DNA of 64,000 nucleotides. It comes from Dictyostelium discoideum. Taxonomy: Eukaryota. The notes under the pieces were generated by a model, which searched no databases, was not told the origin of the DNA, and worked only from the letters and a program-made list of their open reading frames with translations. Below, one piece after another: positions 30,936 through 48,240 of the stretch; within the stretch, counting starts at the first letter, position 1, and every line of letters starts with the position of its first letter. Both the position numbers and the translations under genes were made by a program. The stretch is taken from assembly GCA_000004695.1 (NCBI GenBank), contig CM000151.3, forward strand, positions 7,840,001-7,904,000, read 5' to 3'.

Positions 30936-31724
30936 TTTTATTTTTATTTATTTGTTAATTATTTTTTATTTATTTTATTTTTAAAATTATTTAATAGTTC
31001 TCTTTTTATAAACTTTTTTATTTTTTTAATTTTTTTTTAATTTTATTTAATACAAATATTAATTTTTAAATTTATTTTATTTAAAATATTTAAATAAATA
31101 AAAAAAAAAAAAAAAAATAAATTTATCTGAAGATGTGGAGTTGTAATACAGAAAAAAAAAAAATAACAATTTTATTATTGTTTAATATCGGGTTATTAAT
31201 GTTAAAATAATTTAATTAGTGTTTAATTCGTATATTATATTTTTTTTTTTTATTCAATTAATTAAATTTTTTTTTTTTTTATATTTTATTTTTATTTTAT
31301 TTTATTTTTATTTTTTTTTAATTAAATATTACCAACACACCAAACAATTATTGTGAAAATAAATAAAAAAAATAAAAAAAATAAAAAAAATAAAAAAAAA
31401 CAAAAATAAAAAATTGGTTTGTGTGAAATTTCAAAATAAGTTTTATTATAATAACCATTTTATTAGATTTTTTTTTTTTTAAAATAAAAATAATTTTTTT
31501 TGGTATAAATTCTTACTATTGCCGGTATATTATTTTTTGGTATAAATTCTTACTATTGTCTGTGTATTATTTTTTTTGATATTGACCAGTTATTATCCTG
31601 ATGTAATAAATTGATTTAAAAGTAACTGTGTTTTTTTATTTTAAAAAAAAAAAAGTAAATTAAAATACAATAGGGAGTTTTATCTTTTTTCATCATTATT
31701 GTAAAACCTCATTCGGAGTCGAAC

Positions 31725-31754: not shown

Positions 31755-31837
31755 TGCAAGAGGCGAGATTCGAACTCGCGAACCGAATGGATGAGATCTT
31801 AAGTCACACGGATTTAACCAGACTTTCCTACCCTTGC
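31755..31837 (-). tRNA. tRNA-Leu (anticodon UAA), type II
   Basis: Minus-strand cloverleaf. Acceptor GCAAGGG/CTCTTGC (one G-U pair). D-stem GGA/TCC with a GGTTAAA loop. Anticodon loop CTTAAGA (T33, TAA at 34-36, A37). Long variable arm. T-arm GCGAG-TTCGAAT-CTCGC. Discriminator A. The anticodon stem has one T-T mismatch and the variable-arm pairing is weak, so function is not guaranteed. Confidence 0.65.
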
Positions 31838-31885
31838 TTTGATGTTTTTAGTGTAATAAAGCTTGTTAGCTTTATAAATATATAT

Positions 31886-32188
31886 CGCGTAGCAAAATTT
31901 TCAAAAAAAAAGCAAAAAATAATCAGATCGAAAAAAACAAACAACAACAACAATCTCTTTTTTTGATTATTTCATTTTTCATATAAAAAAGACTTAAAAA
32001 ACAAATAAATAAATAAATAAACTATTTTAAAAAGCCATCTTTTTACTTTATTGTAATTTATTATTTGTTTCGTTTTGAGAATTTTGCGTAGCAAAATTTT
32101 CAAAAAAAAAGCAAAAAATAATCAGATCGAAAAAAACAAACAACAACAATCTCTTTTTTTGATTATTTCATTTTTCATATAAAAAAGA

Positions 32189-32224
<36 letters not shown>

Positions 32225-33931
32225 GGAACCCAAGTTAATCAGAAAATTTCCAGATTTTTAACTTTTTAAAGAAAAATAAAAAAAATAGAAAGAAAATAAG
32301 ATGAAAATCACAAACAACACCACAAATATTAAGCAACACAAATGCCTACAAAAAATAAGCGAAATTGTGGATAAAACTCAATTAAAAAAAAAACAATTCA
32401 AATACGTCATAAACATCAATCACGAACCAGACGATAAAATAAAAAAAGATTTAGAAAAAAGTTTGGACAAAAAAGATGTTTTAATCAAAAGTAATAATAC
32501 ATTCAAAATTCTCACAGACAGTATTAGTACAGTAATCTATTTTGTAAATATGTTTGATGCAGAATTAAAAGGACAATTTATAACCACTATAAGACCAAAA
32601 AATATGTATACAGATTTTGATTGGTATAAATCACTCACAGAAATAGAATGGGTAATAGAAAATGAAGGATGTAAACTAATTAAATTAGAAATTAAAGGCG
32701 AAACTCTAATTATCAAAACAGTGAAAAGAGTCGTAGAAGAATTTGACACTATCATTGAACTAGACAATCTAACATTAATTGGACACTCCAACAAAGGATG
32801 GAGAGATCAAACCTCATTACCAGAAAATCAAGAAGAAAACAAAAATAAAAAACAATCAGATGAACAACAACCACAATCTACATCAGAACAAATACCAAAA
32901 CAAGGAAAAAGAACAATCATTATCCCACCAATCACATCCTCATCTAATGATAAAACATTTATGGCCCTAGATGATACAGCTCAAAAGGTAATAGAAGCAT
33001 CACTAGAAAACGTAGATGAACTAACAAGAATAGAGAATGAGATCAATACACAATCGATAAACAATCAAGAAATTAAAACAAAATCAGAAAAACCTATCGA
33101 ACCACCATCTCCATACAATACACCAATAAAACAACACGGCGAAACAAAGGGACTAACAACGGAAGAAAAACTTAGAGAGGCAAATGATATCTTCGACTTC
33201 ACCAGCCCAAACACTGATGCAATAAGAAAAATAGAATTCCCACTTTCAATCCCTTCAAATCAATGGTTCTTCTCCTCTCCAATAAAACATATCATGAGTT
33301 TCAGCCCAACCTATGGTACACCATCGAAAATTATCGATTCACCAAGTAAATTGTTAAACACACCAAAAAAGAAACAACAAGACAAAACAAACAAGACCAA
33401 CAAAACACCAGTCAAACCAAAATTGGGTGAATATGGACAAAAAAGCATAAAAACAAAAATGGATGAAGATATAGACAACTTCAACAAGGAAATTCTAAAA
33501 CAAATCAATAAATCAAAAAACCCCACAAACACACAAGACCAACAACACAACGAACAAAGTAAAGATCAGTTAGAAGACAAAATAAACCAGAAACTTCAAA
33601 AGGTAGATAAAAATCTACCCCAAATAAAACTATAAAGAAAAACACAATAAGAATAGGTGTTTGGAACATCCAAGGATCCAACACCATCCAATCTGCCAGC
33701 ATAATAAACACCGTTTTAGACAACAACAAGCTGGACGCAGCACTTCTAACTGAAACAAATATAAAAACAAATAAAATTTACTCAATAAATCAACAATATA
33801 AAAACAAAATAACACACCACGCACCAATTGATAAAACAGGACAAGGGGTGTCACAAATCATCATCAACACCCGCAATAGAACTTCCTAAACATCTCAAAA
33901 AATACAATAATTCACTCAGTACTTTCTATAA

Positions 33932-33989
<58 letters not shown>

Positions 33990-34311
33990 CAAGTTAATCA
34001 GAAAAATAAAAAAGATAGAAAGAAAATAAAATGAAAATCACAAACAACACCACAAATATTAAGCAACACAAATGCCTACAAAAAATAAGCGAAATTGTGG
34101 ATAAAACTCAATTAAAAAAAAAACAATTCAAATACGTCATAAACATCAATCACGAACCAGACGATAAAATAAAAAAAGATTTAGAAAAAAGTTTGGACAA
34201 AAAAGATGTTTTAATCAAAAAGACCCTGTAAAAAAAAAAAATAAATAAAATGAGATCTAGCATCTCAAGGAGAAGCAAATAATAATTGCGTTATCCAATT
34301 CAAAAAAAAAA
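31886..34311 (+). mobile_element. TRE5-A (DRE) non-LTR retrotransposon, ORF2-deleted variant (TRE5-A.2-like), 48 bp upstream of tRNA-Leu, divergently oriented
   Basis: A-module tandem units (199-bp period) at 31886..~32200. B-module cctgggaacccaagttaatcag.. follows. Intact ORF1 is at 32301..33635. ORF2 is reduced to its first 9 and last about 20 codons (junction at 33872/33873). Then come poly(A), B-module tail + ORF1' (first 66 codons) + terminal C-module ...ttgcgttatccaattc + A10. A 15-bp TSD 'tttataaatatatat' lies at 31871..31885 and 34312..34326. The distance from the tRNA 5' end (31837) is 48 bp. Confidence 0.85.
32301..33635 (+). CDS. TRE5-A ORF1 protein (444 aa)
   Basis: Intact ORF. 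It is 98-99% identical to the ORF1 copies at 39581..40915 and 42048..43382. Confidence 0.85.
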   Translation: MKITNNTTNIKQHKCLQKISEIVDKTQLKKKQFKYVININHEPDDKIKKDLEKSLDKKDVLIKSNNTFKILTDSISTVIYFVNMFDAELKGQFITTIRPKNMYTDFDWYKSLTEIEWVIENEGCKLIKLEIKGETLIIKTVKRVVEEFDTIIELDNLTLIGHSNKGWRDQTSLPENQEENKNKKQSDEQQPQSTSEQIPKQGKRTIIIPPITSSSNDKTFMALDDTAQKVIEASLENVDELTRIENEINTQSINNQEIKTKSEKPIEPPSPYNTPIKQHGETKGLTTEEKLREANDIFDFTSPNTDAIRKIEFPLSIPSNQWFFSSPIKHIMSFSPTYGTPSKIIDSPSKLLNTPKKKQQDKTNKTNKTPVKPKLGEYGQKSIKTKMDEDIDNFNKEILKQINKSKNPTNTQDQQHNEQSKDQLEDKINQKLQKVDKNLPQIKL

Positions 34312-34326
34312 TTTATAAATATATAT

Positions 34327-34560
34327 AATTAATAATTATATAATTGAATAATACTTTGTTATCTTTATTTAATATTAGTTTATATTTATAATATTCAATA
34401 TTGTTTATAAAATTATTCTTTAGTATTTATATTATTTATAATGAGTTGACAGTATTATTATTATTATTATTATTATATTATTTAAATGTGTGTCAACTAT
34501 AATTAGTAATGTAATATGCATATTTAATATCTATTAATTTTATAGAGTAACTTTATTACA
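34327..34560 (-). repeat. 3' LTR of the DGLT-A-like element (major part; its first 34 bp lie at 31852..31885, displaced by the TRE5-A.2 insertion)
   Basis: Sequence identity with 36683..36916. Its continuity with 31852..31885 is established by the 15-bp TRE5 TSD 'tttataaatatatat' at 31871..31885 and 34312..34326. Confidence 0.8.
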
Positions 34561-34572
34561 TATCCCCCCCTT

Positions 34573-35183
34573 TTAGTTGAAAATTTTTTTCAATCTTTCA
34601 ATATTGACTACTTTATGATCTCTAAGATTACCCATATCTAATTTGAATGTAACATCGCTAACTTTTTCTTGAACTTTAAAAGGACCTCTCCAAGGTTTAT
34701 AGAATTTCTTTGGACCAATAGAAGTTTGTGAATATGGTGTATGTAAATAAACAAAATCACCTGTTTGAATATTTGTTGGACGACGACCTTTATCATAATT
34801 TGTTTTTTGTAATTCTTGAGCTTTATCGAGATTATTCTTTGTAAACCAAAAGGCACGTTTAAGATTATTATTTACGGATTGTGCATAATTATCAGCGAAA
34901 TCTAATCTTAGTGAATTTGTACATGGATTTCTTATTAATGGTTGAATTGAAGTTATTTGTGATTTAATTATTGAATTCTCTGTTTGATTTAATGATATTG
35001 ATTTTAATGGTAAATTTGATGTTATTGGTGAATCTATTGGTTCTTGGAATAAGAATTCTGGAATATCGTAATCTATTGGTAGTTGTTCTTCAATAGTTGG
35101 ATACGATTTGATTGATAGTATATGATGAGAATTAAAATTTTCAATTAAATGATCAGTATCTGTTAATAATTCTGATTTTGATG

Positions 35184-35217
<34 letters not shown>

Positions 35218-36469
35218 TGAATAATCAGATACTGTTTTAAATATAGTTTGTATACATGGTTGGGTTTCTTTAGATATTAATTTGGTACCAACATTGAATT
35301 CAAGATTCTTAATGATCATTTCTTTAAAATCAATTACTAAATTTAATCCAATTATTGTATCAATGCCAAATATACAATCAATTGATGTATCATTATCTTT
35401 AACAACATTAACTTTAACTCTAGCGAATGCTTTACCTAATTTAATTGTTGTGTTACTTATTCCAATGATTTTGATTTCATTATTTGATGCTGATTTAACA
35501 GAATATTGTTTATTTTCAATCTTTAATTTTAACTTTTTAGCAATACTTTCCCAAACAATAGTAAGTGATGAACCAGTATCAATCAAACCTCTAACATTTT
35601 TATTATTTATTAATAAAGCTGCATTCATACTATCTATTCCGATTGAATTAATTGTACTATTATTGACCATTGTAATTGAATTAGTTCTATTATTGTAATT
35701 GTTATTATTATTTTTATCTTTTGACCAACACTCTTGAATTACATGACCTTTCTTTTTGCAGTATTTACAAAATTTTGTGATTGAATTTACTTGATTTTGT
35801 GGTGCTTTATAAGGGGATGATTGTGGTGAATATGTTTGATTTTTATAAATTGGAGTTGCTAATACTTCAGTTTCAGTAGATTGTTCAGTTTGAGATGTAA
35901 CGTACTGTGGTGATGTTGTATAACCAGATCTAGAACCAAGATACTTTTGAGTTCCAAATTCTTGTAATGTTTTTGCAACCAATTGACCAGTATACATTGA
36001 TCTACCTCTCATACGAATTGAACCATCTTCACAAGACTTTGCAATATCTATTGCTCTTTTTAATGATTTTGGTGCACATTTTGTAATTTCAATACCCAAT
36101 TCAGTACCAACAGCTGAATAAAACAATTGTATTTTAAACTTTTCTGAAATATCAACTGCTGAACATTTTGATAGAAATTTACCAATTAATATATCTAATG
36201 TATTGTATTTATATTCTCCCAACTTTGTTAATTCTGTTAAATCATCACTATCACCAATATCAAAAGCATCTTTAAGATCTTCAATTATCTCCATTGCTGT
36301 TAAGTCTGTATCCAATGTTGCGGCATATTCCAATGCATTGTTTCTTAGTTTTCTAATAATATCAGCTTTCGATATTTCCTCGCCATGAATTAGTAAGAGT
36401 AAGTGTTTGAATTTACGAAATGATAAACCTTTTCCATCGCCCGAAAAAATTATGTTTTCATTATTATTC

Positions 36470-36471
<2 letters not shown>
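34573..36471 (-). CDS. Gag-protease-(delta RT/RNaseH/IN core)-integrase C-terminus fusion ORF of the deleted DGLT-A-like element (632 aa)
   Basis: CCHC knuckle 'KFCKYCKKKGHVIQEC'. Protease active site 'LIDTGSS'. The C-terminus 'KAQELQKTNYDKGRRPTNIQTGDFVYLHT...KKFYKPWRGPFKVQEKVSDVTFKLDMGNLRDHKVVNIERLKK' is typical of a Ty3/gypsy integrase C-terminal domain. No RT (YxDD) or RNase H is present, yet the frame is retained across the deletion. Confidence 0.7.
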
Positions 36472-36539
<68 letters not shown>

Positions 36540-36635
36540 TATTAAATTAAATTTAATCTAATGTACAATTTTAATTGATTGAATAATTTGATAACTTTAT
36601 ATTTATAGTATATTTTTTTTTTTTTTTTTGAAAGA

Positions 36636-36646
36636 CGATGTCGCCA
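36636..36646 (-). other. Primer-binding site of the LTR element, complementary to the 3' end (+CCA) of tRNA-Ser(AGA)
   Basis: The plus strand reads cgatgtcgcca, which is the acceptor 3' strand CGATGTC + discriminator G + CCA of the tRNA-Ser gene at 38701..38782. On the element's sense (minus) strand this is TGGCGACATCG, 2 nt after the LTR end ...TTACA. Confidence 0.75.
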
Positions 36647-36648
36647 AA

Positions 36649-36916
36649 TGTAATAAAGCTTGTTAGCTTTATAAATATATATAATTAATAATTATATAAT
36701 TGAATAATACTTTGTTATCTTTATTTAATATTAGTTTATATTTATAATATTCAATATTGTTTATAAAATTATTCTTTAGTATTTATATTATTTATAATGA
36801 GTTGACAGTATTATTATTATTATTATTATTATATTATTTAAATGTGTGTCAACTATAATTAGTAATGTAATATGCATATTTAATATCTATTAATTTTATA
36901 GAGTAACTTTATTACA
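36649..36916 (-). repeat. 5' LTR of the DGLT-A-like element (268 bp)
   Basis: Near-identical to 34327..34560 plus 31852..31885. Confidence 0.8.
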
Positions 36917-36949
36917 TTAGAATTAATTTACGTAATAAAACCTCTTTTG

Positions 36950-37070
36950 TAAGTTTGGAAACAAATCATCCCGTTCGATCTGATAAGTAAATCGACCTCA
37001 GGCCTTCCAAGTACTCTGGTTGGAGACAACAGGGGAACATAGGGTGCTGTATACTTTATTTACTCCGATT

Positions 37071-37104
<34 letters not shown>
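36950..37104 (+). pseudogene. 5'-truncated 5S rRNA sequence fused to a TRE5-B/C-type 3' terminus + A32 (chimeric retropseudogene)
   Basis: About 108 nt, taagtttggaaacaaatcatcccgttcgatctgataagtaaatcgacctcaggccttccaagtactctggttggagacaacaggggaacatagggtgctgtatactt. It carries the universal 5S helix IV/V features GTACT.GG.TGGAGAC and GGGAA.A.GGGTGCTGTA. It is directly followed by 'atttactccgattc' + A32. Compare the 3' tail 'gcgttactccattc'+An of the TRE5-like fragment ending at about 38155. It is flanked by aacctcttttg at 36939..36949 and 37103..37113. Confidence 0.65.
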
Positions 37105-37106
<2 letters not shown>

Positions 37107-37115
37107 CTTTTGCAT

Positions 37116-37199
37116 GACCCTGTAAAAAAAAAAAAAAAATAAAATAAAATGAGATCTAGAATCTCAAGGACAAGCAAATAATAATTGCGTTATCCAATT

Positions 37200-37231
<32 letters not shown>
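37116..37231 (+). mobile_element. Extreme 5'-truncated TRE5-A copy (terminal C-module only, about 85 nt + A31)
   Basis: tgaccctgt-A16-taaaataaaatgagatctagaatctcaaggacaagcaaataataattgcgttatccaattc + A31. This matches the 3' end of every TRE5-A copy in the window. It is flanked by cctcttttgca at 37105..37115 and 37232..37242. Confidence 0.7.
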
Positions 37232-37234
<3 letters not shown>

Positions 37235-37496
37235 CTTTTGCATTTATTACAATTATCTTAAATTTATGTCAAATAATATTTCAAATTAATAATTAATTAA
37301 TTTATTATAAATATAAAAAAATTATTTAATTTTAATTAGGCTGTTAATTTCATTGTTAAACGATAAAATCTATTAAATAAAAATATAAATAAATAAATTA
37401 ATATATAAAGTGTTTTAAAGATTATTAAATATAAAATAAAGATTAAATTTTAAATATAAATAAAAACTATAATATTTGTAAAATAATAATTACAAA

Positions 37497-37955
37497 AGAC
37501 CACTTTCGTTACATTTAAAGGTATAGATCGGAAATAAGATTACATTCAAGATAAAAGTGGAGCTTCCAAAATAACGTGGAGTGGAAATATTCAACAAACT
37601 GGATATTCCACTAACAGCCAACGCCATAGCTATAATATGTGAAAACATTTGGAAAAGAAGAAACAAAAGAATACACGAAGAAATCACTCTCAAAAACTTA
37701 AGAAAAGAAAAACCCAAACATCTTTTAATGAAAACGCAAGAAGCTGCCTGGGAAAGAACCAAAAAAACATATATAAATTAATAAGACAATCAAAAAAAGC
37801 AACAAAGATTGAAGCATCGAAAAAATTCAAATCCATCATCACCTCACAACTCGAAATATTCAGCAAAAACTAGAACTCTCCTCTATACATAGCAACACTA
37901 ATACCAAACCTAAACAAATATATAACATCACTCAACACACTCTATACCCTCAACA

Positions 37956-38018
<63 letters not shown>

Positions 38019-38155
38019 TAATACCACCCAAAAAAAAAAAAAAAAAAAAAAAAAGGGGACCATTGTAAAATTTAAACCTACTATAATGAAATGAGAAGAA
38101 TCTCTAGAAGAAGCAACTCACAATTGCGTTACTCCATTCAAAAAAAAAATTGTTC
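37497..38155 (+). mobile_element. Degenerate 5'-truncated TRE5-B/C-like non-LTR element 3' end (ORF2 C-terminus remnant + 3'UTR + poly(A))
   Basis: The frameshifted coding remnant 'ITWSGNIQQTGYSTNSQRHSYNM/ICENIWKRRNKRIHEEITLKN..KTQEAAWERTKK' is homologous to the TRE5-A ORF2 end 'HTWNVKILNHLQIALVANLIAIIFDKIWHKRNKLIHDEKEI..KTQRAAWDRTQ'. There is an A70 run at about 37968-38005. The terminal motif is 'aatgagaagaatctctagaagaagcaactcacaattgcgttactccattc' + A10. Confidence 0.55.
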
Positions 38156-38700
38156 GGAAATGATTTTTTTATATTTGATATTCTAACACTAAAGTTAGAA
38201 TTTTTAAAAAATCCTCGAAACCAACAAATTAAAGAGAGAAAAACTCAAAAAAATAAAAATAAATAATTTTTTATTTATTTTATTAAAGTTTTCTCCAGGT
38301 TTCTTTTATATAAGTGACATAATAGAAGGTTATTTATATTAATTTGTATTAATTTATATTAATTTATTATCTCTTCAATTGAAATAAATTGATTTTCAAA
38401 TAAACATTAAGATTTTTTTTTTTTATTGATGCTGTAAAGAGTGGACCAAAACCAATTATTTTTTTTATTTTTCAGTTTTTAATTTTTGTTTTTTTAGGCC
38501 AAAAAGCTTCCAACTAAACTAAATTAATAATTATTTGAAATTAAATTCGTAGTCTTATAATGTTTAATTAATTAATTATTATTCTAATTCTTTTACTATG
38601 ATTAATATTAAAAACTTTAAATAATGAAATTTCTAAACAGAACTTTGAAGTTCTCGAGATATCCGAAGTTCGGAAGGGGCCAATTTTTATAAAAAGTTAT

Positions 38701-38782
38701 CGACATCGGCAGGGTTCGAACCTGCGCCCCCGAAGGGATCTGATTTCTAGTCAGACGCATTAGACCACTTTGCTACGATGTC
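38701..38782 (-). tRNA. tRNA-Ser (anticodon AGA), type II
   Basis: Acceptor GACATCG/CGATGTC. D-stem GCA/TGC. Perfect anticodon stem TCTGA/TCAGA with loop CTAGAAA (AGA at 34-36). Long variable arm TCCCTTCGGGGGC (CCC-TTCG-GGG hairpin). T-arm GCAGG-TTCGAAC-CCTGC. Discriminator G. Confidence 0.85.
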
Positions 38783-38829
38783 TTTGAAGTTTAGAATGAA
38801 CGTCGTATCTCAAATTGTATGAAATTTAA

Positions 38830-39454
38830 GATTATTTCATTTTTCATATAAAAAAGACTTAAAAAACAAATAAATAAATAAATAAACTATTTTAAAAAGC
38901 CATCTTTTTACTTTATTGTAATTTATTATTTGTTTCGTTTTGAGAATTTTGCGTAGCAAAATTTTCAAAAAAAAAGCAAAAAATAATCAGATCGAAAAAA
39001 ACAAACAACAACAACAATCTCTTTTTTTGATTATTTCATTTTTCATATAAAAAAGACTTAAAAAACAAATAAATAAATAAATAAACTATTTTAAAAAGCC
39101 ATCTTTTTACTTTATTGTAATTTATTATTTGTTTCGTTTTGAGAATTTTGCGTAGCAAAATTTTCAAAAAAAAAGCAAAAAATAATCAGATCGAAAAAAA
39201 CAAACAACAACAACAATCTCTTTTTTTGATTATTTCATTTTTCATATAAAAAAGACTTAAAAAACAAATAAATAAATAAATAAACTATTTTAAAAAGCCA
39301 TCTTTTTACTTTATTGTAATTTATTATTTGTTTCGTTTTGAGAATTTTGCGTAGCAAAATTTTCAAAAAAAAAGCAAAAAATAATCAGATCGAAAAAAAC
39401 AAACAACAACAACAATCTCTTTTTTTGATTATTTCATTTTTCATATAAAAAAGA

Positions 39455-39505
<51 letters not shown>

Positions 39506-41211
39506 GGAACCAAGTTAATTAGAAAATTTCCAGATTTTTAACTTTTTAAAGAAAAATAAAAAAGATAGAAAGAAAATAAAATGAAAATCACAAACAACAC
39601 CACAAATATTAAGCAACACAAATGCCTACAAAAAATAAGCGAAATTGTGGATAAAACTCAATTAAAAAAAAAACAATTCAAATACGTCATAAACATCAAT
39701 CACGAACCAGACGATAAAATAAAAAAAGATTTAGAAAAAAGTTTGGACAAAAAAGATGTTTTAATCAAAAGTAATAATACATTCAAAATTCTCACAGACA
39801 GTATTAGTACAGTAATCTATTTTGTAAATATGTTTGATGCAGAATTAAAAGGACAATTTATAACCACTATAAGACCAAAAAATATGTATACAGATTTTGA
39901 TTGGTATAAATCACTCACAGAAATAGAATGGGTAATAGAAAATGAAGGATGTAAACTAATTAAATCAGAAATTAAAGGCGAAACTCTAATTATCAAAACA
40001 GTGAAAAGAGTCGTAGAAGAATTTGACACTATCATTGAACTAGACAATCTAACATTAATTGGACACTCCAACAAAGGATGGAGAGATCAAACCTCATTAC
40101 CAGAAAATCAAGAAGAAAACAAAAATAAAAAACAATCAGATGAACAACAACCACAATCTACATCAGAACAAATACCAAAACAAGGAAAAAGAACAATCAT
40201 TATCCCACCAATCACATCCTCATCTAATGATAAAACATTTATGGCCCTAGATGATACAGCTCAAAAGGTAATAGAAGCATCACTAGAAAACGTAGATGAA
40301 CTAACAAGAATAGAGAATGAGATCAATACACAATCGATAAACAATCAAGAAATTAAAACAAAATCAGAAAAACCTATCGAACCACCATCTCCATACAATA
40401 CACCAATAAAACAACACGGCGAAACAAAGGGACTAACAACGGAAGAAAAACTTAGAGAAGCAAATGATATCTTCGACTTCACCAGCCCAAACACTGATGC
40501 AATAAGAAAAATAGAATTCCCACTTTCAATCCCTTCAAATCAATGGTTCTTCTCCTCTCCAATAAAACATATCATGAGTTTCAGCCCAACCTATGGTACA
40601 CCATCGAAAATTATCGATTCACCAAGTAAATTGTTAAACACACCAAAAAAGAAACAACAAGACAAAACAAACAAGACCAACAAAACACCAGTCAAACCAA
40701 AATTGGGTGAATATGGACAAAAAAGCATAAAAACAAAAATGGATGAAGATATAGACAACTTCAACAAGGAAATTCTAAAACAAATCAATAAATCAAAAAA
40801 CCCCACAAACACACAAGACCAACAACACAATGAACAAAGTAAAGATCAGTTAGAAGACAAAATAAACCAGAAACTTCAAAAGGTAGATAAAAATCTACCC
40901 CAAATAAAACTATAAAGAAAAACACAATAAGAATAGGTGTTTGGAACGTCCAAGGATCCAACACCATCCAATCTGCCAGCATAATAAACACCGTTTTAGA
41001 CAACAACAAGCTGGACGCAGCACTTCTAACTGAAACAAATATAAAAACAAATAAAATTTACTCAATAAATCAACAATATAAAAACAAAATAACACACCAC
41101 GCACCAATTGATAAAACAGGACAAGGGGTGTCACAAATCATCATCAACACCCGCAATAGAACTTCCTAAACATCTCAAAAAATACAATAATTCACTCAGT
41201 ACTTTCTATAA

Positions 41212-41267
<56 letters not shown>

Positions 41268-41594
41268 CAAGTTAATCAGAAAAATAAAAAAGATAGAAAG
41301 AAAATAAAATGAAAATCACAAACAACACCACAAATATTAAGCAACACAAATGCCTACAAAAAATAAGCGAAATTGTGGATAAAACTCAATTAAAAAAAAA
41401 AAAACAATTCAAATACGTCATAAACATCAATCACGAACCAGACGATAAAATAAAAAAAGATTTAGAAAAAAGTTTGGACAAAAAAGATGTTTTAATCAAA
41501 AAGACCCTGTAAAAAAAAAAAAAAAATAAAATGAGATCTAGCATCTCAAGGAGAAGCAAATAATAATTGCGTTATCCAATTCAAAAAAAAAAAA
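38830..41594 (+). mobile_element. TRE5-A.2-like (ORF2-deleted) copy #2, 48 bp upstream of tRNA-Ser
   Basis: Same architecture and the same ORF2 deletion junction as copy #1. The A-module array has about 3.3 units (38830..~39455). ORF1 is at 39581..40915, ORF1' at 41309..41512, the C-module tail + A12 ends at 41594. The TSD 'ttgtatgaaatttaa' is at 38815..38829 and 41595..41609. The distance to the tRNA 5' end (38782) is 48 bp. Confidence 0.85.
39581..40915 (+). CDS. TRE5-A ORF1 protein (444 aa), copy #2
   Basis: Intact ORF, near-identical to 32301..33635. Confidence 0.85.
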   Translation: MKITNNTTNIKQHKCLQKISEIVDKTQLKKKQFKYVININHEPDDKIKKDLEKSLDKKDVLIKSNNTFKILTDSISTVIYFVNMFDAELKGQFITTIRPKNMYTDFDWYKSLTEIEWVIENEGCKLIKSEIKGETLIIKTVKRVVEEFDTIIELDNLTLIGHSNKGWRDQTSLPENQEENKNKKQSDEQQPQSTSEQIPKQGKRTIIIPPITSSSNDKTFMALDDTAQKVIEASLENVDELTRIENEINTQSINNQEIKTKSEKPIEPPSPYNTPIKQHGETKGLTTEEKLREANDIFDFTSPNTDAIRKIEFPLSIPSNQWFFSSPIKHIMSFSPTYGTPSKIIDSPSKLLNTPKKKQQDKTNKTNKTPVKPKLGEYGQKSIKTKMDEDIDNFNKEILKQINKSKNPTNTQDQQHNEQSKDQLEDKINQKLQKVDKNLPQIKL

Positions 41595-41904
41595 TTGTAT
41601 GAAATTTAAATTTTCAAAAAAAAGCAAAAAATAATCAGATCGAAAAAAAACAAACAACAACAACAATCTCTTTTTTTGATTATTTCATTTTTCATATAAA
41701 AAAGACTTAAAAAACAAATAAATAAATAAATAAACTATCTTAAAAAGCCATCTTTTTACTTTATTGTAATTTATTATTTGTTTCGTTTTGAGAATTTTGC
41801 GTAGCAAAATTTTCAAAAAAAAGCAAAAAATAATCAGATCGAAAAAAAACAAACAACAACAACAATCTCTTTTTTTGATTATTTCATTTTTCATATAAAA
41901 AAGA

Positions 41905-41971
<67 letters not shown>

Positions 41972-42047
41972 GGAACCCAAGTTAATCAGAAAATTTCCAG
42001 ATTTTTAACTTTTTAAAGAAAAATATAAAAAATAGAAAGAAAATAAA

Positions 42048-43382
42048 ATGAAAATCACAAACAACACCACAAATATTAAGCAACACAAATGCCTACAAAA
42101 AATAAGCGAAATTGTGGATAAAACTCAATTAAAAAAAAAACAATTCAAATACGTCATAAACATCAATCACGAACCAGACGATAAAATAAAAAAAGATTTA
42201 GAAAAAAGTTTGGACAAAAAAGATGTTTTAATCAAAAGTAATAATACATTCAAAATTCTCACAGACAGTATTAGTACAGTAATCTATTTTGTAAATATGT
42301 TCGATGCAGAATTAAAAGGACAATTTATAACCACTCTAAGACCAAAAAATATGTATACGGATTTCGATTGGTATAAATCACTCACAGAAATAGAATGGGT
42401 AATAGAAAATGAAGGATGTAAACTAATTAAATCTGAAATTAAAGGCGAAACTCTAATTATCAAAACAGTGAAAAGAGTCGTAGAAGAATATGACACTATC
42501 ATTGAACTAGACAATCTAACATTAATTGGTCACTCCAACAAAGGATGGAGAGATCAAACCTCATTACCAGAAAATCAAGAAGAAAACAAAAATAAAAAAC
42601 AATCAGATGAACAACAACCACAATCTACATCAGAACAAATACCAAAACAAGGAAAAAGAACAATCATTATCCCACCAATCACCTCCTCATCTAATGATAA
42701 AACATTTATGGCCCTAGATGATACAGCTCAAAAGGTAATAGATGCATCACTAGAAAACGTAGATGAACTAACAAGAATAGAGAATGAGATCAATACCCAA
42801 TCGATAAACAATCAAGAAATTAAAACAAAATCAGAAAAACCTATTGAACCACCATCTCCATACAATACACCAATAAAACAACACGGCGAAACAAAGAGAC
42901 TAACAACGGAAGAAAAACTTAGAGAGGTAAATGATATCTTCGACTTCACCAGCCCAAACACTGATGCAATAAGAAAAATAGAATTCCCACTTTCAATCCC
43001 TTCAAATCAATGGTTCTTCTCCTCTCCAATAAAACATATCATGAGTTTCAGCCCAACCTATGGTACACCATCGAAAATTATCGATTCACCAAGTAAATTG
43101 TTAAACACACCAAAAAACAAACAACAAGACAAAACAAACAGGACCAACAAAACACCAGTCAAACCAAAATTGGGTGAATATGGACAAAAAAGCATAAAAA
43201 CAAAAATGGATGAAGATATAGACAACTTCAACAAGGAAATTCTAAAACAAATCAGTAAATCAAAAAACCCCACAAACACACAAGACCAACAACACAACGA
43301 ACAAAGTAAAGATCAGTTAGAAGACAAAATAAACCAGAAACTTCAAAAGGTAGATAAAAATCTACCCCAAATAAAACTATAA
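42048..43382 (+). CDS. TRE5-A ORF1 protein (444 aa), copy #3
   Basis: Intact. It has a few substitutions relative to copies 1 and 2 (e.g. TTLRPKN, EEYDTI). Confidence 0.85.
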   Translation: MKITNNTTNIKQHKCLQKISEIVDKTQLKKKQFKYVININHEPDDKIKKDLEKSLDKKDVLIKSNNTFKILTDSISTVIYFVNMFDAELKGQFITTLRPKNMYTDFDWYKSLTEIEWVIENEGCKLIKSEIKGETLIIKTVKRVVEEYDTIIELDNLTLIGHSNKGWRDQTSLPENQEENKNKKQSDEQQPQSTSEQIPKQGKRTIIIPPITSSSNDKTFMALDDTAQKVIDASLENVDELTRIENEINTQSINNQEIKTKSEKPIEPPSPYNTPIKQHGETKRLTTEEKLREVNDIFDFTSPNTDAIRKIEFPLSIPSNQWFFSSPIKHIMSFSPTYGTPSKIIDSPSKLLNTPKNKQQDKTNRTNKTPVKPKLGEYGQKSIKTKMDEDIDNFNKEILKQISKSKNPTNTQDQQHNEQSKDQLEDKINQKLQKVDKNLPQIKL

Positions 43383-43594
43383 AGAAAAACACAATAAGAA
43401 TAGGTGTTTGGAACGTCCAAGGATCCAACACCATCCAATCTGCCAGCATAATAAACACCGTATTAGACAACAACAAGCTGGACGCAGCACTTCTAACTGA
43501 AACAAATATAAAAACAAATAAAATTTACTCAATAAATCAACAATATAAAAACAAAATAACACACCACGCACCAATTGATAAAACAGGACAAGGG

Positions 43595-46500
43595 GTGTCA
43601 CAAATCATCATCAACACCCAAATAAAAACAACAACAAAAACAATAAACGAAAGAATTATATCTTCCGAATGGATGATTGCAAAAACACAGATCAAATGCA
43701 CAACCATTTATGCCCCAGCAAAGTCAAACGAAAGACATGAATGGTATAAGGAAAATCTCACAGAAGAAATACTACACAGCGATATTATAACTGGAGACTT
43801 CAATGTAGACTGTTCAGTGGATAATAACCTTAACAAATATATTAAAACAATCTTCGACGAATTCGAATTTACAGAAATTAAGAATGGAATCACATTTCCA
43901 AGAAACAAATCAACCATCGATAGGGTCTTTGTCTCAAAGAAGATACTCCATCTAAACCCAATAGTTACTACTAAGGAAATCAAATTAAAATCTGATCACA
44001 ACATGGTAATCATTGAATTAAAAATACCAGAATACGAGCAACAAAAGAAAGGAGAAAGACTATGGAGACAAAACCTAGAAACTCTCAAAATGAATTCAAC
44101 CAGCCTCAAAATTAATAAAACAATTAAATACTACAATAAAAAATTCGAAGAGAACACCAGCAAATGGTACAAATTAAACATTTGCGAACAATGGTTGAAA
44201 CTAAAAGATGAAATAAAGAAACTGTCAATTAATATAGAAATTAGAGAAAGCAATAAAACCAAAAACAAACTAAAAGAACTCGCAGAAAAACTCGAAACAG
44301 CCAAAGATTCAAGAGCAATCTTCCTTAAAGAAGAGATCAACAATATTCTAAAGGAACAAGTAAGAATAAAACAAGCAAACCAAACCAACACCCACATCAA
44401 CAACAAAGAAACACCATCAAAATACTTAACCAGAAGGTTAAAAGTCCAAAGAAAGACAAATGAAATCCCTCAAATTCTAGATCCAAGCAACAATTGTTTG
44501 GTAACAAAAAACGAGGATATCCTCGAAGTAGCAAGAAGATATTACGAGAACCTGTACCAGAAGAGAGAATGCAACGAAGACACTCACCACGAACTCCTAA
44601 AAACATTCAATAAAAGGATTGATCAAAAGATATTGGACGAAATTAATCAACCAATAGAAGGATATGAAATCAGACTAGGCATTGAAAAAATACAAGAAGG
44701 AAAAGCACCTGGTAAAGATGGACTCCTTCCAACATTTTACAAAAACCACATTAATGAAATTCTACCAATAATATCAAAACTATACAATCACTTCTGGAAC
44801 ACAACAATCCCAAAGGACTTCAAACAAGGGATATTGATTACTATATATAAAAACAAAGGAGACCCAAACAACCTGGATAATTATAGACCAATAACACTTC
44901 TAAATGTCGATTACAAAATCTATTCGAAAATAATCAACAATAGGATCCTGAAGTTCTTAAACAAAATAATCTCACCATTCCAAACTGGATTCGTACCAAG
45001 AAGACTACTGCACGATAACATCATCACCTTAAACTCAACAATAGAAATAATAAAACGAGAGATTAACACAAAAGAGGATATGGAACCAATCATAACATTT
45101 TATGATTTTGAAAAAGCATTCGATTCAATCTCACATAACGCCATTCTACGTACTCTTGCACATCTAAAACTACCACTCAAAATGGTCCTCACAATAATGA
45201 ACTTACTCAATGAATCAGAAACATCAGTGTACATCAATAACTCATTATCTAAAAGCTTTACATCAAAAAGAGGAACCAAACAAGGTGATCCTATCTCTCC
45301 CACTATCTTCGCATTAGTGGTTGAATGCATGGCAACTACTATAATAAATGACCGCTGCATCAATGGTGTAACCAAAGAAACCATTAAAATACTACAGTTC
45401 GCCGATGATACAGCAACAATAGCATACAACTTTATGGACCATTTCCTCATGAATGAATGGATCAAGAAGTTTTGCCAAGCAACCAGCGCAAAAATAAACC
45501 AAACCAAATGCTCGTGTATCACTTTCAAATGGAACACCAGAACGCTATACACCGTCATAAAATCAAACGAAAGGTACCTCGGCTTTGACTTCAACAATAA
45601 GGGTATCAAATCCAAAATCAATACAATCTCAGACAACATCAGAGCTAAACTAGTAACATGGAACTCAACTTCATCAACCTATATGGGCAGACTCATAATG
45701 GCAAAAACATATGCACTATCTCAGTTAACGTTCCACACTTACATCAACACCACACCACAACACAATAGTATTGAAAATAACATCGTAAAATTCGTTTTCA
45801 ACACAAAATCTAAAAACTCTCTTTCACTACAAAGAAGACAAAACAACTATATCAATGGTGGCCTAAACTTATGGAACCTGAAGACAAGAGAACTAGCACA
45901 GAAAGCATGGTTATTCGAAAGATACCTCCACCAAAGAGTAAGTAACACTCCTAGTTCATATATAAAACTGTGGGAAGAGGAACTCAAAAACAACAACAAC
46001 AACAAAACAACAACAAAACAAAATCAACTACAACTACACTGGCAATGCAAGCAAGCATGGACCCAATTAAAAACTCCACAAAATAAACAAACACACTACG
46101 AACACCTCCCAAAATTAAAAAAAATATACGAAGATATGATGACAACTCAATCTCCTGAACACAACAAATTCATACCAACTCCTGGCCAAAAAGAAATAAT
46201 GACCAAAATTAATAGCAAACACCTTCCATTTAAAGAAATCAAAAAAATAATAAACATGAAAGGTAGAGATCTATTATGGAGATACACACTGAAAGCACTA
46301 CCAAAAATATACAACATGCCATGCCAACAGTGTGGGGAAGATGAGACCTCAGAACATATATTCTTCAACTGCAAAGCCCACATCAAAAACACACAAGAAA
46401 TCTTCAACTACACCCTAACTAAGTCTGGACACACCACTCACACCTGGAATGTGAAGATTTTAAACCATCTACAAATTGCACTAGTAGCCAATTTAATAGC

Positions 46501-46816
46501 TATTATATTCGATAAAATCTGGCACAAAAGAAATAAACTCATTCACGATGAAAAAGAAATAATAATTCACAGACAACAAGTCATACGTGAACTAATTAAA
46601 ACACAAAGAGCTGCATGGGACAGGACACAAGCGGTTATAAACAAAACATTAAGAATCAAATCAAAACAACGGCCAGAAGAACAAAATAAATTAGACTCAC
46701 TAATCTCGCTAAAGCTATTACAATTTAGCAGACAATGGAACTCACCTCTTCACGCAATAGAACTTCCTAAACATCTCAAAAAATACAATAATTCACTCAG
46801 TACTTTCTATAAATAA
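43595..46816 (+). CDS. TRE5-A ORF2 protein (1073 aa): apurinic/apyrimidinic-type endonuclease + reverse transcriptase + C-terminal Cys/His motif
   Basis: The N-terminal APE-like domain reads ...ITGDFNVDCS...KSDHNMVIIEL. RT motifs include 'YRPITLLNVDYKIYSKII', 'AFDSISHNAIL' and 'LQFADDTATIA' (a FADD box = YxDD). The C-terminus 'CQQCGEDETSEHIFFNCKAH' is an HC-type zinc knuckle. The frame is intact. Confidence 0.85.
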   Translation: MSQIIINTQIKTTTKTINERIISSEWMIAKTQIKCTTIYAPAKSNERHEWYKENLTEEILHSDIITGDFNVDCSVDNNLNKYIKTIFDEFEFTEIKNGITFPRNKSTIDRVFVSKKILHLNPIVTTKEIKLKSDHNMVIIELKIPEYEQQKKGERLWRQNLETLKMNSTSLKINKTIKYYNKKFEENTSKWYKLNICEQWLKLKDEIKKLSINIEIRESNKTKNKLKELAEKLETAKDSRAIFLKEEINNILKEQVRIKQANQTNTHINNKETPSKYLTRRLKVQRKTNEIPQILDPSNNCLVTKNEDILEVARRYYENLYQKRECNEDTHHELLKTFNKRIDQKILDEINQPIEGYEIRLGIEKIQEGKAPGKDGLLPTFYKNHINEILPIISKLYNHFWNTTIPKDFKQGILITIYKNKGDPNNLDNYRPITLLNVDYKIYSKIINNRILKFLNKIISPFQTGFVPRRLLHDNIITLNSTIEIIKREINTKEDMEPIITFYDFEKAFDSISHNAILRTLAHLKLPLKMVLTIMNLLNESETSVYINNSLSKSFTSKRGTKQGDPISPTIFALVVECMATTIINDRCINGVTKETIKILQFADDTATIAYNFMDHFLMNEWIKKFCQATSAKINQTKCSCITFKWNTRTLYTVIKSNERYLGFDFNNKGIKSKINTISDNIRAKLVTWNSTSSTYMGRLIMAKTYALSQLTFHTYINTTPQHNSIENNIVKFVFNTKSKNSLSLQRRQNNYINGGLNLWNLKTRELAQKAWLFERYLHQRVSNTPSSYIKLWEEELKNNNNNKTTTKQNQLQLHWQCKQAWTQLKTPQNKQTHYEHLPKLKKIYEDMMTTQSPEHNKFIPTPGQKEIMTKINSKHLPFKEIKKIINMKGRDLLWRYTLKALPKIYNMPCQQCGEDETSEHIFFNCKAHIKNTQEIFNYTLTKSGHTTHTWNVKILNHLQIALVANLIAIIFDKIWHKRNKLIHDEKEIIIHRQQVIRELIKTQRAAWDRTQAVINKTLRIKSKQRPEEQNKLDSLISLKLLQFSRQWNSPLHAIELPKHLKKYNNSLSTFYK

Positions 46817-46887
<71 letters not shown>

Positions 46888-47311
46888 GGAACCCAAGTTA
46901 ATCAGAAAATTTCCAGATTTTTAACTTTTTAAAGAAAAATATAAAAAATAGAAAGAAAATAAAATGAAAATCACAAACAACACCACAAATATTAAGCAAC
47001 ACAAATGCCTACAAAAAATAAGCGAAATTGTGGATAAAACTCAATTAAAAAAAAAACAATTCAAATACGTCATAAACATCAATCACGAACCAGACGATAA
47101 AATAAAAAAAGATTTAGAAAAAAGTTTGGACAAAAAAGATGTTTTAATCAAAAGTAATAATACAATTCAAAATTCGAAACAAAAAAAAAAAAAAAAAAAA
47201 AAAAGTAAACTAACCCCTCTTTTAGAGACCCTGTAAAAAAAAAAAAAAAAATAAAATAAAATGAGATCTAACATCTCAAGGAGAAGCAAATAATAATTGC
47301 GTTATCCAATT

Positions 47312-47345
<34 letters not shown>

Positions 47346-47368
47346 TATGAAATTTAAATTGTAAAAAA

Positions 47369-47530
47369 CTATAAATAAAATGAGATCTAGCATCTCAAGG
47401 AGAAACAACCAATAATTACGTTATCCAAAAAAAAAACAAAAAAATTATATGAAATTTAACATTTTAATGAGATCTAGCATCTCAAGGAGAAGCAACAAAT
47501 AATTGCGTTATCCAATTCAAAAATAAAAAA
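47369..47530 (+). mobile_element. Two older TRE5-A tail-only fragments (C-module 3' about 50-60 nt + oligo-A), each followed by a degenerate copy of the same target motif
   Basis: 47369..~47436 reads ctataaataaaatgagatctagcatctcaaggagaaacaaccaataattacgttatcc+A10, then 'attatatgaaatttaac'. 47466..~47530 reads aatgagatctagcatctcaaggagaagcaacaaataattgcgttatccaattc+A, then 'atctatgaaatactta'. Confidence 0.6.
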
Positions 47531-48240
47531 ATCTATGAAATACTTATAATATTTTGTATACTTGTGTGACCCTTGAACACACATAAATAATTAATAATAA
47601 ATTATAAATAATATTATATCTCTATATAATATTATATGTAATAAAGTTTTATTTATAAGTTTTGTTTGTGCACAATTTGGAATAAAACAACAACGAAATA
47701 TTTTTATTTTATTTTACTATTTATACTAAAATTAATTTTACTAAAGAAACCGTTGGTAAAATTTCTGAGAATAAAGTAAGAATATTGTATTTGTTAACGT
47801 CTTTTCAGTTACAGACTATTTCCATATTTGTATTTTACCAGGGATAAAAACTTTATAAATTAATTTATGTCCCTTAATTATTCTCGATTATTACAAAGAT
47901 TCAAATTCATCACGTAGTCAGGCCCTTTTTCTTTCAGAATAATTTATTCATACATAAAATATACTTACCTCTTCTAATTGTATTTAATATAATAAGATTT
48001 ATTTGATCACAACTTTATTTTTATCTTATTTTTACTATTTATGCGATGTATTTTCTGAAGGCCTAATAACAAATAGTAGAGAGGATTTAGAAAAATCCCA
48101 AACATCATCTCCATCAGCTTGAAAGATTTAGTTAACACTGGAACTCTCCCCTCCTCACAGTATCAAACCTTATACAATAAATCACGTCCCTAAACACTCT
48201 CTTTAAAAAAAAATTAAATAAATAAAAAAAAAAAAAAAAA
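47531..48240 (+). mobile_element. Possible degenerate retroelement 3' region (less AT-rich than its surroundings) ending in a TRE5-B/C-like terminal motif + oligo(A)
   Basis: 48125..48200 'ctggaactctcccctcctcacagtatcaaaccttatacaataaatcac..ctaaacactctcttt'+A-rich resembles 37862..37930 'ctagaactctcctctatacatagcaacactaataccaaacctaaacaaatatataacatcactcaacacactcta' of the TRE5-B/C-like fragment. No intact ORF is present. Confidence 0.3.

Follow-up and report, generated by a model that had tools for sequence, protein, structure and literature searches.

A tRNA-Leu(UAA) gene of Dictyostelium discoideum as a probable landing pad for retrotransposons stacked at fixed upstream distances

In this study, we analyzed a 64,000-nucleotide stretch of the Dictyostelium discoideum genome (the window) and the repeats upstream of its tRNA-Leu(UAA) gene. 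Our findings support, with a probability of roughly 90%, a model where this gene acted as a landing pad, the Pol III complex repeatedly guiding retrotransposons to fixed positions and older elements being displaced outward. The pattern lies far beyond chance, since a natural empty site in a near-identical assembly verifies the target site duplication (TSD) and the spacings recur at 11 TRE5-A and 2 DGLT-A loci. A first-pass annotation had already read the locus as a chronological record measured out by the Pol III complex; the empty site, a more distant lineage and published distances all support that reading, with the molecular ruler itself being a mechanism taken from the literature. The stack interpretation restates what is already known, namely TFIIIB/TFIIIC-guided targeting and TRE-TRE tandems; its sole possibly new item is a 5S retrocopy.

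The tRNA gene and the two younger elements are arranged as follows (L008 is a lineage about 9% diverged, L019 a D. discoideum assembly 99.75% identical).

31708-31718, minus strand: external B box GGTTCGACTCC, ~37-47 bp downstream of tRNA-Leu, read from the sequence and conserved in L008
31755-31837, minus strand: tRNA-Leu(UAA) gene, the Pol III target (ARAGORN; Rfam tRNA, 49.1 bits)
31838-31851: 14-bp spacer between the tRNA-Leu 5' end and DGLT-A, the final 4 bp (TTAG) being the left DGLT-A TSD
31852-31885, minus strand: proximal DGLT-A LTR (3' LTR in element orientation), first 34 bp, 100% identical to 36649-36682
31871-31885: TRE5-A.2 TSD copy 1, TTTATAAATATATAT, within the LTR (exact 15-bp repeat)
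31886-34311, plus strand: TRE5-A.2, a non-autonomous TRE5-A of 2426 bp (homology to other copies; published structure, PMC3159450)
34312-34326: TRE5-A.2 TSD copy 2, TTTATAAATATATAT, also LTR sequence (single copy in L019)
34327-34560, minus strand: remainder of the proximal DGLT-A LTR, 100% identical to 36683-36916
34561-36648, minus strand: DGLT-A internal region, 2088 bp
36649-36916, minus strand: distal DGLT-A LTR (5' LTR in element orientation), 268 bp, TG...CA
36917-36920: right DGLT-A TSD copy, TTAG

[quoted passage not shown] External B boxes have been described before (PMC5911963). The interval between the flanking genes holds more than 15 kb of repeats.

Closest to the tRNA gene stands a 2.6-kb, internally deleted DGLT-A. 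The 14-bp gap and the 4-bp TSD (TTAG, 31848-51 and 36917-20), both noted in the first pass, are exact, and the gap agrees with the published distance to the mature tRNA coding sequence, 13-18 bp and at most 33 (PMC6101501). With the insert and one of the TSD copies excised from the proximal LTR, the two LTRs, which had looked identical by eye, agree at 268 of 268 positions. A polypurine tract (AAAAGGGGGGGA) lies at 34563-34574, and the primer binding site (TGGCGACATCGTCTTTC, 36630-36646), with its 2-bp spacer to the LTR, exactly matches the published sequence and offset (PMC5006619). The open reading frame (34573-36471, 632 aa) encodes Gag with a CX2CX4HX4C knuckle (CKYCKKKGHVIQEC), an aspartyl protease and then the C-terminal SH3 domain of integrase; at this locus it lacks reverse transcriptase, RNase H and the integrase core through an in-frame deletion. 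The published single ORF comprises Gag (CX2CX4HX4C), PR, RT, RNH and IN in a whole-element consensus of 5054 bp, and the deleted ORF agrees with the published statement that D. discoideum has no full-length copy. This copy otherwise shares with the described Ty3/gypsy element DGLT-A of D. discoideum (solo LTRs formerly H3R) the ~265-bp LTR, TG...CA ends, exact PBS and offset, LTR-abutting PPT, Gag knuckle and tRNA-upstream site, either orientation being known (PMC5006619, PMC6101501, PMC5911963); it differs as a 2.6-kb in-frame deletion derivative without RT, RNase H and integrase core. The 2.6-kb form behaves like a non-autonomous subfamily, because the identical deleted architecture recurs at a tRNA-Ile gene (AX4 DDB_G0279931). 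There, a second copy (L020) has its LTR 14 bp from the tRNA and a 4-bp TSD, TTTC. In Saccharomyces cerevisiae, Pol III factors direct the gypsy-type element Ty3 to positions a few bp ahead of where tRNA transcription begins. DGLT-A, unlike Ty3, is reported to bind the TFIIIC subunit Tfc4, through its RNase H and integrase, and not TFIIIB (PMC6101501).

The proximal LTR is split by TRE5-A.2, whose 5' end lies exactly 48 bp from the tRNA-Leu 5' end, in head-to-head orientation. Its 5' part carries ~1.7 A-modules, a B-module and an intact ORF1 (32301-33635, 444 aa), and its 3' part a ~290-bp ORF2 stub (33640-33930), an internal A-run, a 3' B-module, an 87-bp C-module remnant and oligo(A). By the published definition (PMC3159450), TRE5-A.2 lacks ORF2 and carries a 72-bp BC-module deletion, after which the C-module is reduced to its 3'-terminal ~87 bp. 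The sequence at 31886-34311 shows these features, together with the A/B/ORF1/B/C/oligo(A) layout: its C part (34221-34311) begins GACCCTG, and a TRE5-A.1 copy at 47140-47322 keeps the extra segment. Its identity with the copy at 39150-41592 is 98.7%, with full-length nucleotide identities of 98.7-98.8% across other copies, and its 444-aa ORF1 is identical to that of at least six copies in GCA_054883475.1. It shares with TRE5-A/TRE5-A.2 (formerly DRE, a tRNA-targeted L1-like non-LTR element) the A/B/C layout, ORF1, missing ORF2, 72-bp BC deletion, oligo(A) tail, variable-length TSD, ~47 bp 5'-to-5' siting and tandems at occupied tRNAs (PMC5391098, PMC3159450). The essentials being identical, what marks this copy out is its chance location within a DGLT-A LTR and a presence/absence polymorphism in two nearly identical assemblies.

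That polymorphism dates the last event. L019 carries DGLT-A and the older layer beyond it with an uninterrupted LTR in which the 15-bp target occurs once, a natural empty site from which TRE5-A.2 is absent; TRE5-A.2 is therefore the youngest insertion. The proposed split of the LTR at 48 bp with a 15-bp TSD is borne out accordingly, both this TSD and TTAG being exact. In L008, none of the elements is present and the upstream region is contiguous. The tRNA-Leu orthologue there has lost its B box, and ~29 extra bp separate the tRNA from the ACCT... target. If those ~29 bp were lost from the present locus after the two oldest insertions, the original spacing would have been ~72-75 bp. A spacing of ~72-75 bp is inside the published range, away from the mode.

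Beyond the distal DGLT-A TSD lies the older layer.

36921-36949: ancestral upstream DNA, 19 bp, then target copy T1, ACCTCTTTTG, at 36940-36949 (contiguous orthologous sequence in L008)
36950-37102, plus strand: 5S retrocopy (Rfam 5S, 46.8 bits; homology to the L001 5S gene)
37103-37115: target copy T2, ACCTCTTTTGCA(T) (repeat comparison)
37116-37230, plus strand: TRE5-A tail, C-module only, 5'-truncated, with ~30 A (90-95% identical to the window's other C-modules)
37231-37243: target copy T3, ACCTCTTTTGCA(T), running into ancestral upstream DNA (orthologous to L008 ACCTTTTTCGCTTTCATTACAA)
37537-38139, plus strand: outer TRE5-C-like fragment, 5'-truncated, ending GCGTTACTCCATTC + A10, possible TSD TCGGAAAT(AA)GATT (74-79% identical to L003, L016 and L008 elements)

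The 5S retrocopy and the C-module tail (37116-37200, then poly(A)) are both bounded by copies of one target, ACCTCTTTTG(CA). The first comprises 2 extra nucleotides, 5S nt ~16-119 with a U-tail (36952-37057), ATTTACTCCGATTC (37058-37071) and ~31 A. Rfam RF00001 matches 36936-37055 with 46.8 bits (gathering score 38), real homology starting from ~36952; this is not a functional full-length 5S gene, the first ~15 nt being non-5S and helix I pairs broken. The segment 36950-37102 is a 5'-truncated 5S retrocopy with poly(A) and TSD. With the younger elements removed, its 5' junction lies 43 bp from tRNA-Leu and that of the C tail 45-46 bp. The first-pass value for this layer, 46-48 bp, thus needs correcting; both distances fit the published 47±3 or nearly so, the 5S junction falling 1 bp outside it.

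On this basis we propose four steps, the order of the first three being inferred from geometry. A 5'-truncated, C-module-only TRE5-A would have integrated first by target-primed reverse transcription (TPRT), duplicating ACCTCTTTTGCA with its 5' junction 45-46 bp from tRNA-Leu. A second TPRT at the tRNA-proximal copy of that target may then have deposited the 5S retrocopy, with its junction at 43 bp. Subsequently, the non-autonomous 2.6-kb DGLT-A (Ty3/gypsy) would have integrated 14 bp upstream with its 4-bp TSD, displacing the old layer by 2.6 kb, and TRE5-A.2 would have entered at 48 bp, by then within the DGLT-A LTR, with its 15-bp TSD. The three TRE5-type events agree in placing the first-strand nick ~30-34 bp, and the 5' junction 43-48 bp, upstream of the tRNA. 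At least four integrations had been claimed from the start; T1, T2 and T3 are consistent with that number, in which the old-layer pair depends on three copies of a single target.

Could the pair be a single composite TPRT with template jumps, making three integrations rather than four? The pieces adjoin each other, share one orientation and have identical sequence at their borders. Eight nucleotides of the target (CCTCTTTT) also occur in C-modules, in the stretch immediately preceding the point where the C tail begins, so T2 could in principle be partly element-derived. However, T2 (ACCTCTTTTGCAT) equals T3 over 13 nt including GCAT, where the C-module has AGAG, and the pieces are separated by a full poly(A) of ~31 nt and then an entire target copy, the product of a site that undergoes TPRT twice in succession. 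The tRNA-Ser stack of the window, which begins at 47 bp, and L003 show this pattern too, with one TSD present in five copies. We therefore find a composite origin improbable. More improbable still is that DGLT-A came first and the old layer was later added beyond its distal LTR, drawn there, for instance, by the LTR or by the internal Pol III promoter of 5S, the 43-46 bp being coincidental. The order of the old layer and DGLT-A is inferred and not directly observed, since L019 has both and L008 neither; moreover, the 5S fragment retains nt ~16-119, including the usual internal control region, and TRE5-A can target 5S genes, 35-42 bp upstream (PMC5391098). Yet the C tail lies downstream, not upstream, of the 5S fragment, and the match at 43-46 bp would be left without explanation. 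We know of no LTR-directed TRE5 targeting. The identical LTRs argue for a young DGLT-A, whereas the C tail has diverged 5-10% from active C-modules; and at a tRNA-Glu gene (L015) the arrangement is repeated, with a DGLT-A LTR 13 bp away and older TRE5 pieces beyond.

The successive-insertion reading agrees with spacings elsewhere and with published targeting (PMC5006619, PMC6101501, PMC5391098). At 11 other tRNAs TRE5-A lies at 41-51 bp, with a median of 47; the reported value is 47±3 bp upstream, with the 5' ends of element and tRNA turned toward each other, and TRE-TRE tandems are documented, having formed experimentally at 91 of 98 occupied tRNAs (PMC5391098). TRE5-A ORF1 binds TFIIIB, and targeting is B-box dependent (PMC5911963). 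Passive accumulation in a gene-poor "safe" interval, with no position-specific targeting, would suit a region that tolerates so many repeats, but base-precise spacings recur at 13 other loci with elements fixed in orientation, and identical target nucleotides are re-used; the replicate spacings refute this explanation, to which we attach next to no weight. The TRE5-C-like fragment at 37537-38139 lies off the ruler, ~340 bp from tRNA-Leu in the reconstructed site, and is unaccounted for by this gene.

What may set the stack apart is the 5S retrocopy, seen as one copy in the ~0.5 Mb examined. A dictyostelid 5S gene in L001 shares 97% identity with it and has a different 3' flank, and the 5S part of the retrocopy ends ...GTATACTTT, as expected from Pol III termination in the T-run of that gene. 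The 14 nt that follow differ from the L001 flank, and ATTTACTCCGATTC resembles the TRE5 C-module 3' terminus: TTACTCC(G)ATTC matches C-module termini, for example GCGTTACTCCATTC at 38126-38139. As the retrocopy appears to terminate in ~12 nt of TRE5 C-module plus poly(A), its sequence suggests template switching. Reverse transcription would start on a C-module-bearing TRE5 RNA and switch after ~12 nt to a 5S rRNA that had terminated, or ligation of these RNAs may have come first; the chimeric product would integrate at the canonical TRE5 position. Judged from sequence, we hold the chances about even that this element is a genuine TRE5-mediated chimera, the alternative being the copy of a read-through 5S transcript. 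In LINE-1 chimeras (U6/L1, 5S/L1), a small Pol III RNA extending to its native U-tail is followed by a short piece of LINE 3' end and poly(A), with a TSD on either side. The layout here would be the same, although the 5S part is 5'-truncated and the putative LINE-derived part spans just ~12 nt. Processed pseudogenes derived from cellular mRNAs are reportedly absent from the D. discoideum genome, which was attributed to the C-module requirement (PMC3159450). If true, the chimeric reading would document copying of a cellular RNA by the TRE5 machinery in such a genome, and the element, with its internal promoter from 5S and its tail from a LINE, would be proto-SINE-like in architecture.

The locus holds a stack of retroelements on the 5' side of a tRNA-Leu(UAA) gene; the finding reads correctly a phenomenon that is already known. 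Because the spacing of TRE5-A (~47 bp) and DGLT-A (~15 bp), the build-up of tandems at tRNA genes already occupied and the part played by TFIIIB and TFIIIC are all published, nothing in it is new as a phenomenon; the only unusual item is a 5S rRNA piece with a C-module-like end. The tRNA gene lies on the minus strand, therefore its 5' side points to higher coordinates:

31755-31837, minus strand: tRNA-Leu(UAA), called by ARAGORN and Rfam
14 bp between tRNA-Leu and LTR: spacer TTTGATGTTTTTAG
31886-34311: TRE5-A.2 insert of 2426 bp, interrupting the proximal DGLT-A LTR
34561-36648, minus strand: DGLT-A internal region of 2088 bp, between the proximal LTR (to 34560) and the distal LTR
36649-36916: distal DGLT-A LTR, then the second TTAG at 36917-20
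36950-37102: 5S retrocopy, tail type ACTCCGATTC-A(n)
37116-37230: C-module-only TRE5-A tail (C tail)
38701-38782: tRNA-Ser(AGA), with its own TRE5-A stack on the 5' side, starting 47 bp away

The layout of tRNA gene, spacer, LTR and insert described in the first-pass annotation, with exact target-site duplications (TSDs) and a 48-bp spacing, is what we read from the sequence. The proximal DGLT-A LTR begins TGTAATAAAG, is broken after 34 bp, resumes past the insert and ends at 34560; once the insert and one duplication copy are taken out, the two LTRs, which had looked identical by eye, agree at 268 of 268 positions. The reverse complement of 36630-36646, TGGCGACATCGTCTTTC, lies 2 bp from the LTR and has the sequence and offset of the published DGLT-A primer-binding site (PMC5006619), and a polypurine tract adjoins the other LTR. 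The element measures 2.6 kb against a 5054-bp consensus and carries a single 632-aa ORF in which a Gag knuckle of the form CX2CX4HX4C and an aspartyl protease are followed directly by the integrase C-terminal SH3 domain. Since Gag-protease is joined to the integrase SH3 domain, and a relative carrying the RT domain aligns with residues 1-410 only, the RT, RNase H and integrase core have been deleted in frame. Exact-product look-ups of this ORF and of three flanking ORFs gave no match, and orthologous loci were found by homology search followed by look-up of the matches. The same deleted Gag-PR-INc architecture is seen in a fetched comparison locus (L020, 9569-12165), as AX4 protein DDB_G0279931 at a tRNA-Ile; the two 2.6-kb copies share 92% nucleotide and 87% amino acid identity, the latter unevenly: close to 100% for residues 233-530, less in the remainder. 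This comparison suggests that the 2.6-kb DGLT-A is a non-autonomous subfamily that has been mobilised and whose lineages have recombined. Downstream of tRNA-Leu, the window holds no TRE3 element; an external B box, GGTTCGACTCC (31708-31718, minus strand), lies ~40 bp downstream. This box is also conserved in L008, which is another assembly with the label D. discoideum, ~9% diverged.

On either side of the TRE5-A.2 insert stands one copy of an exact 15-bp duplication, TTTATAAATATATAT (31871-85 and 34312-26), and the insert begins exactly 48 bp from the first base of tRNA-Leu. It is 98.7% identical over its whole length to another copy in the window, shares its ORF1 with at least six other genomic copies, has only a stub of ORF2 and contains the 87-bp C-module remnant that is the defining mark of TRE5-A.2 (PMC3159450). 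Its 5' end faces the 5' end of tRNA-Leu, the obligatory orientation for TRE5-A (PMC5391098). A Pfam search of TRE5-A ORF1 found no domain, in line with the literature, in which this protein is dissimilar to the ORF1 proteins of other TRE and non-LTR elements. Searching for homologues of the DGLT-A ORF brought up this locus in a near-identical D. discoideum assembly (GCA_054883475.1, JBTAPE010000033.1; L019), 99.75% identical across 9.8 kb of flank, with differences that are mostly homopolymer-length gaps. There, the window's DGLT-A, 5S piece and C tail all recur without a difference, yet the proximal LTR is unbroken, TTTATAAATATATAT is single-copy and TRE5-A.2 is absent. The comparison with another D. 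discoideum proposed in the first-pass annotation thus yields a true empty site: L019 is the exact pre-integration state, which proves that the TTTATAAATATATAT duplication is a TSD and that TRE5-A.2 is the youngest event. The tRNA-Ser stack of L019, compared with 38812-41612 of the window, has one extra TRE5-A.2 unit, which could be a new insertion or a product of unequal recombination; within 20 kb, two TRE5-A.2 polymorphisms thus separate the window from L019.

Beyond the distal TTAG, 19 bp of ordinary DNA lead up to the first of three target copies, ACCTCTTTTG(CA), at 36940, 37103 and 37231, which bracket two poly(A)-tailed pieces. The inner one is recognised by Rfam as 5S rRNA (46.8 bits, gathering score 38) and shares 97% identity with an intact 5S gene of a dictyostelid on a metagenome contig (L001), the homology being limited to the part from 5S nucleotide ~16 up to the 3' end and three further T. 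The outer one, a C-module-only TRE5-A tail, is 90-95% identical to active C-modules. A complete target copy between two different elements is the pattern expected when target-primed integration happens twice in succession at one and the same target, and of the two pieces the tRNA-proximal 5S one is the younger. With DGLT-A and TRE5-A.2 removed, the 5' junction of the 5S piece lies 43 bp from tRNA-Leu, and with the 5S piece and its target copy also removed the C tail lies 45-46 bp away, both values, read as original spacings, assuming that a stretch of ~29 bp, present in L008 between the tRNA and the ACCT... target and missing from the window, was already absent at integration. The earlier claim that the old layer is again ruler-spaced therefore holds, its figure of 46-48 bp being slightly high. 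Judged from the tRNA-proximal TSD edges, the first-strand nick fell 30-34 bp upstream of tRNA-Leu for both old pieces and 33 bp upstream for TRE5-A.2. The target ACCTCTTTTGCAT (37103-37128) and the C-module sequence CCCCTCTTTTAGAGACCCTG (47216-47240) have in common an 8-nt patch, CCTCTTTT, which in the C-module sits just upstream of the C tail start point; the patch could be microhomology with an influence on the 5' truncation point.

Taken together, the nested sequences support an order in which the C tail would have inserted first, the 5S piece next, displacing the C tail, then DGLT-A, displacing both, and finally TRE5-A.2, displacing all earlier arrivals, each placed relative to the tRNA gene. 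In the chronology put forward by the first-pass annotation, the last step is demonstrated by L019, while the first three are ones we infer; the identical LTRs indicate a young DGLT-A against a C tail diverged by 5-10%, which backs their order. A molecular ruler set by Pol III factors comes from the literature: TRE5-A ORF1 binds TFIIIB subunits, with targeting dependent on the B box being intact (PMC5911963), and the RNase H and the integrase N-terminal extension of DGLT-A bind the TFIIIC subunit Tfc4 (PMC6101501). Published distances are 47+/-3 bp for TRE5-A and 13-18 bp, up to 33, for DGLT-A, and a table footnote records that stacking obscures original distances (PMC5006619). The truncated 5S fragment retains the usual internal control region and lies head-to-head with tRNA-Leu, and could have contributed to DGLT-A placement; such a contribution is not needed to explain the position.

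The spacing recurs elsewhere. In 11 loci fetched through TRE5-A ORF1, the gap from the tRNA 5' end to the first TRE5-A base is 47, 48, 49, 47, 44, 41, 42, 51, 48, 49 and 47 bp. The tRNA-Ser stack (38701-47544) comprises four TRE5-A elements or tails set apart by five TSD copies, AATTGTATGAAATTTAA, the outer ones progressively degraded; it runs from A-modules at 47 bp through TRE5-A.2 and a full-length TRE5-A.1 (ORF2 43595-46816) to two C-module tails. As the Pol III gene behind the tRNA-Leu stack, tRNA-Ser(AGA) was rejected, being 6.9 kb off, facing with its 3' side and having a separate stack of its own. The second 2.6-kb DGLT-A (DDB_G0279931), oppositely oriented, stands 14 bp from tRNA-Ile; its LTRs are identical and its TSD is 4 bp long. 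A decayed solo LTR lies 13 bp from a tRNA-Glu, with older TRE5 pieces beyond.

L008 is collinear with the window until 2 nt before the LTR, and its upstream region is contiguous, with none of the four elements. A 7-nt deletion in the T-loop has removed the B box from its tRNA-Leu orthologue (~9243-9168, minus strand), for which tRNA prediction now gives no call. In published work TRE5-A targeting is abolished when the B box is mutated (PMC5911963); the B-box loss and element-free site fit B-box-dependent targeting and, as a single case, are only suggestive. In L008, ~500 bp further upstream (8680-8651, minus strand), 30 nt remain of another tRNA-Leu copy, which hints at an old tandem duplication. 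Another fetched locus, L011, was rejected as orthologous: its 919-aa neighbour gene is coincidental and it is a different, tRNA-Val locus.

One fragment does not obey the ruler. In the reconstructed site a 5'-truncated TRE5-C-like piece (37537-38139) is ~340 bp away from tRNA-Leu, and its flanks (37526-37541 and 38142-38155) form a probable decayed TSD, TCGGAAAT(AA)GATT. The sequence it inserted into is similar to positions -26 to -46 relative to tRNA-Leu in L008; speculatively, the piece may have been targeted to a lost duplicate tRNA, of the kind glimpsed in the 30-nt fragment. Between the tRNA-Leu stack and tRNA-Ser, a segment of ~45 bp, AATCCTCGAAACCAACAAATTAAAGAGAG... (38205-38250), is inverted in L008 (8480-8440) and may be a piece of another mobile element.

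The 5S piece ends ...GTATACTTT, at the Pol III termination point expected from the T-run in L001, and the next 14 nt are ATTTACTCCGATTC. That these are the 5S gene's own 3' flank is not supported: they are unlike the flank in L001, a dictyostelid contig that may belong to another species and whose flank may not be that of D. discoideum. In their last 12 nt they agree with the ends of C-modules (GCGTTACTCCATTC at 38126-38139; GCGTTATCCAATTC in 35 TRE5-A copies). On these sequence matches, 5S piece, TRE5 C-module end and poly(A) probably form a chimera, though this is not proven, and the retrocopy at 36950-37102 is possibly the product of a template switch. On this reading it is built like the L1 chimeric retrocopies, where a small Pol III RNA carries a very short piece of LINE 3' end. 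The D. discoideum genome is reported to be without processed pseudogenes of cellular mRNAs, which has been ascribed to the C-module requirement (PMC3159450). A single 5S retrocopy was counted in roughly 0.5 Mb of sequence. The 5S 3'-end pattern had no match in metagenome and prokaryote genome collections; a second 5S pattern had a single metagenome match, the dictyostelid 5S gene of L001, and none in prokaryote genomes, and our literature search found no mention of a Dictyostelium 5S retrocopy.

Overall, the locus is a clean worked example in which three natural states serve as controls: element-free with no B box, DGLT-A with the old layer, and the same with TRE5-A.2. That two near-identical assemblies are polymorphic for TRE5-A.2 shows that activity is ongoing. 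What deserves specialist attention is the 5S/C-module retrocopy, which bears on how strictly the TRE5 reverse transcriptase keeps to its own RNA.
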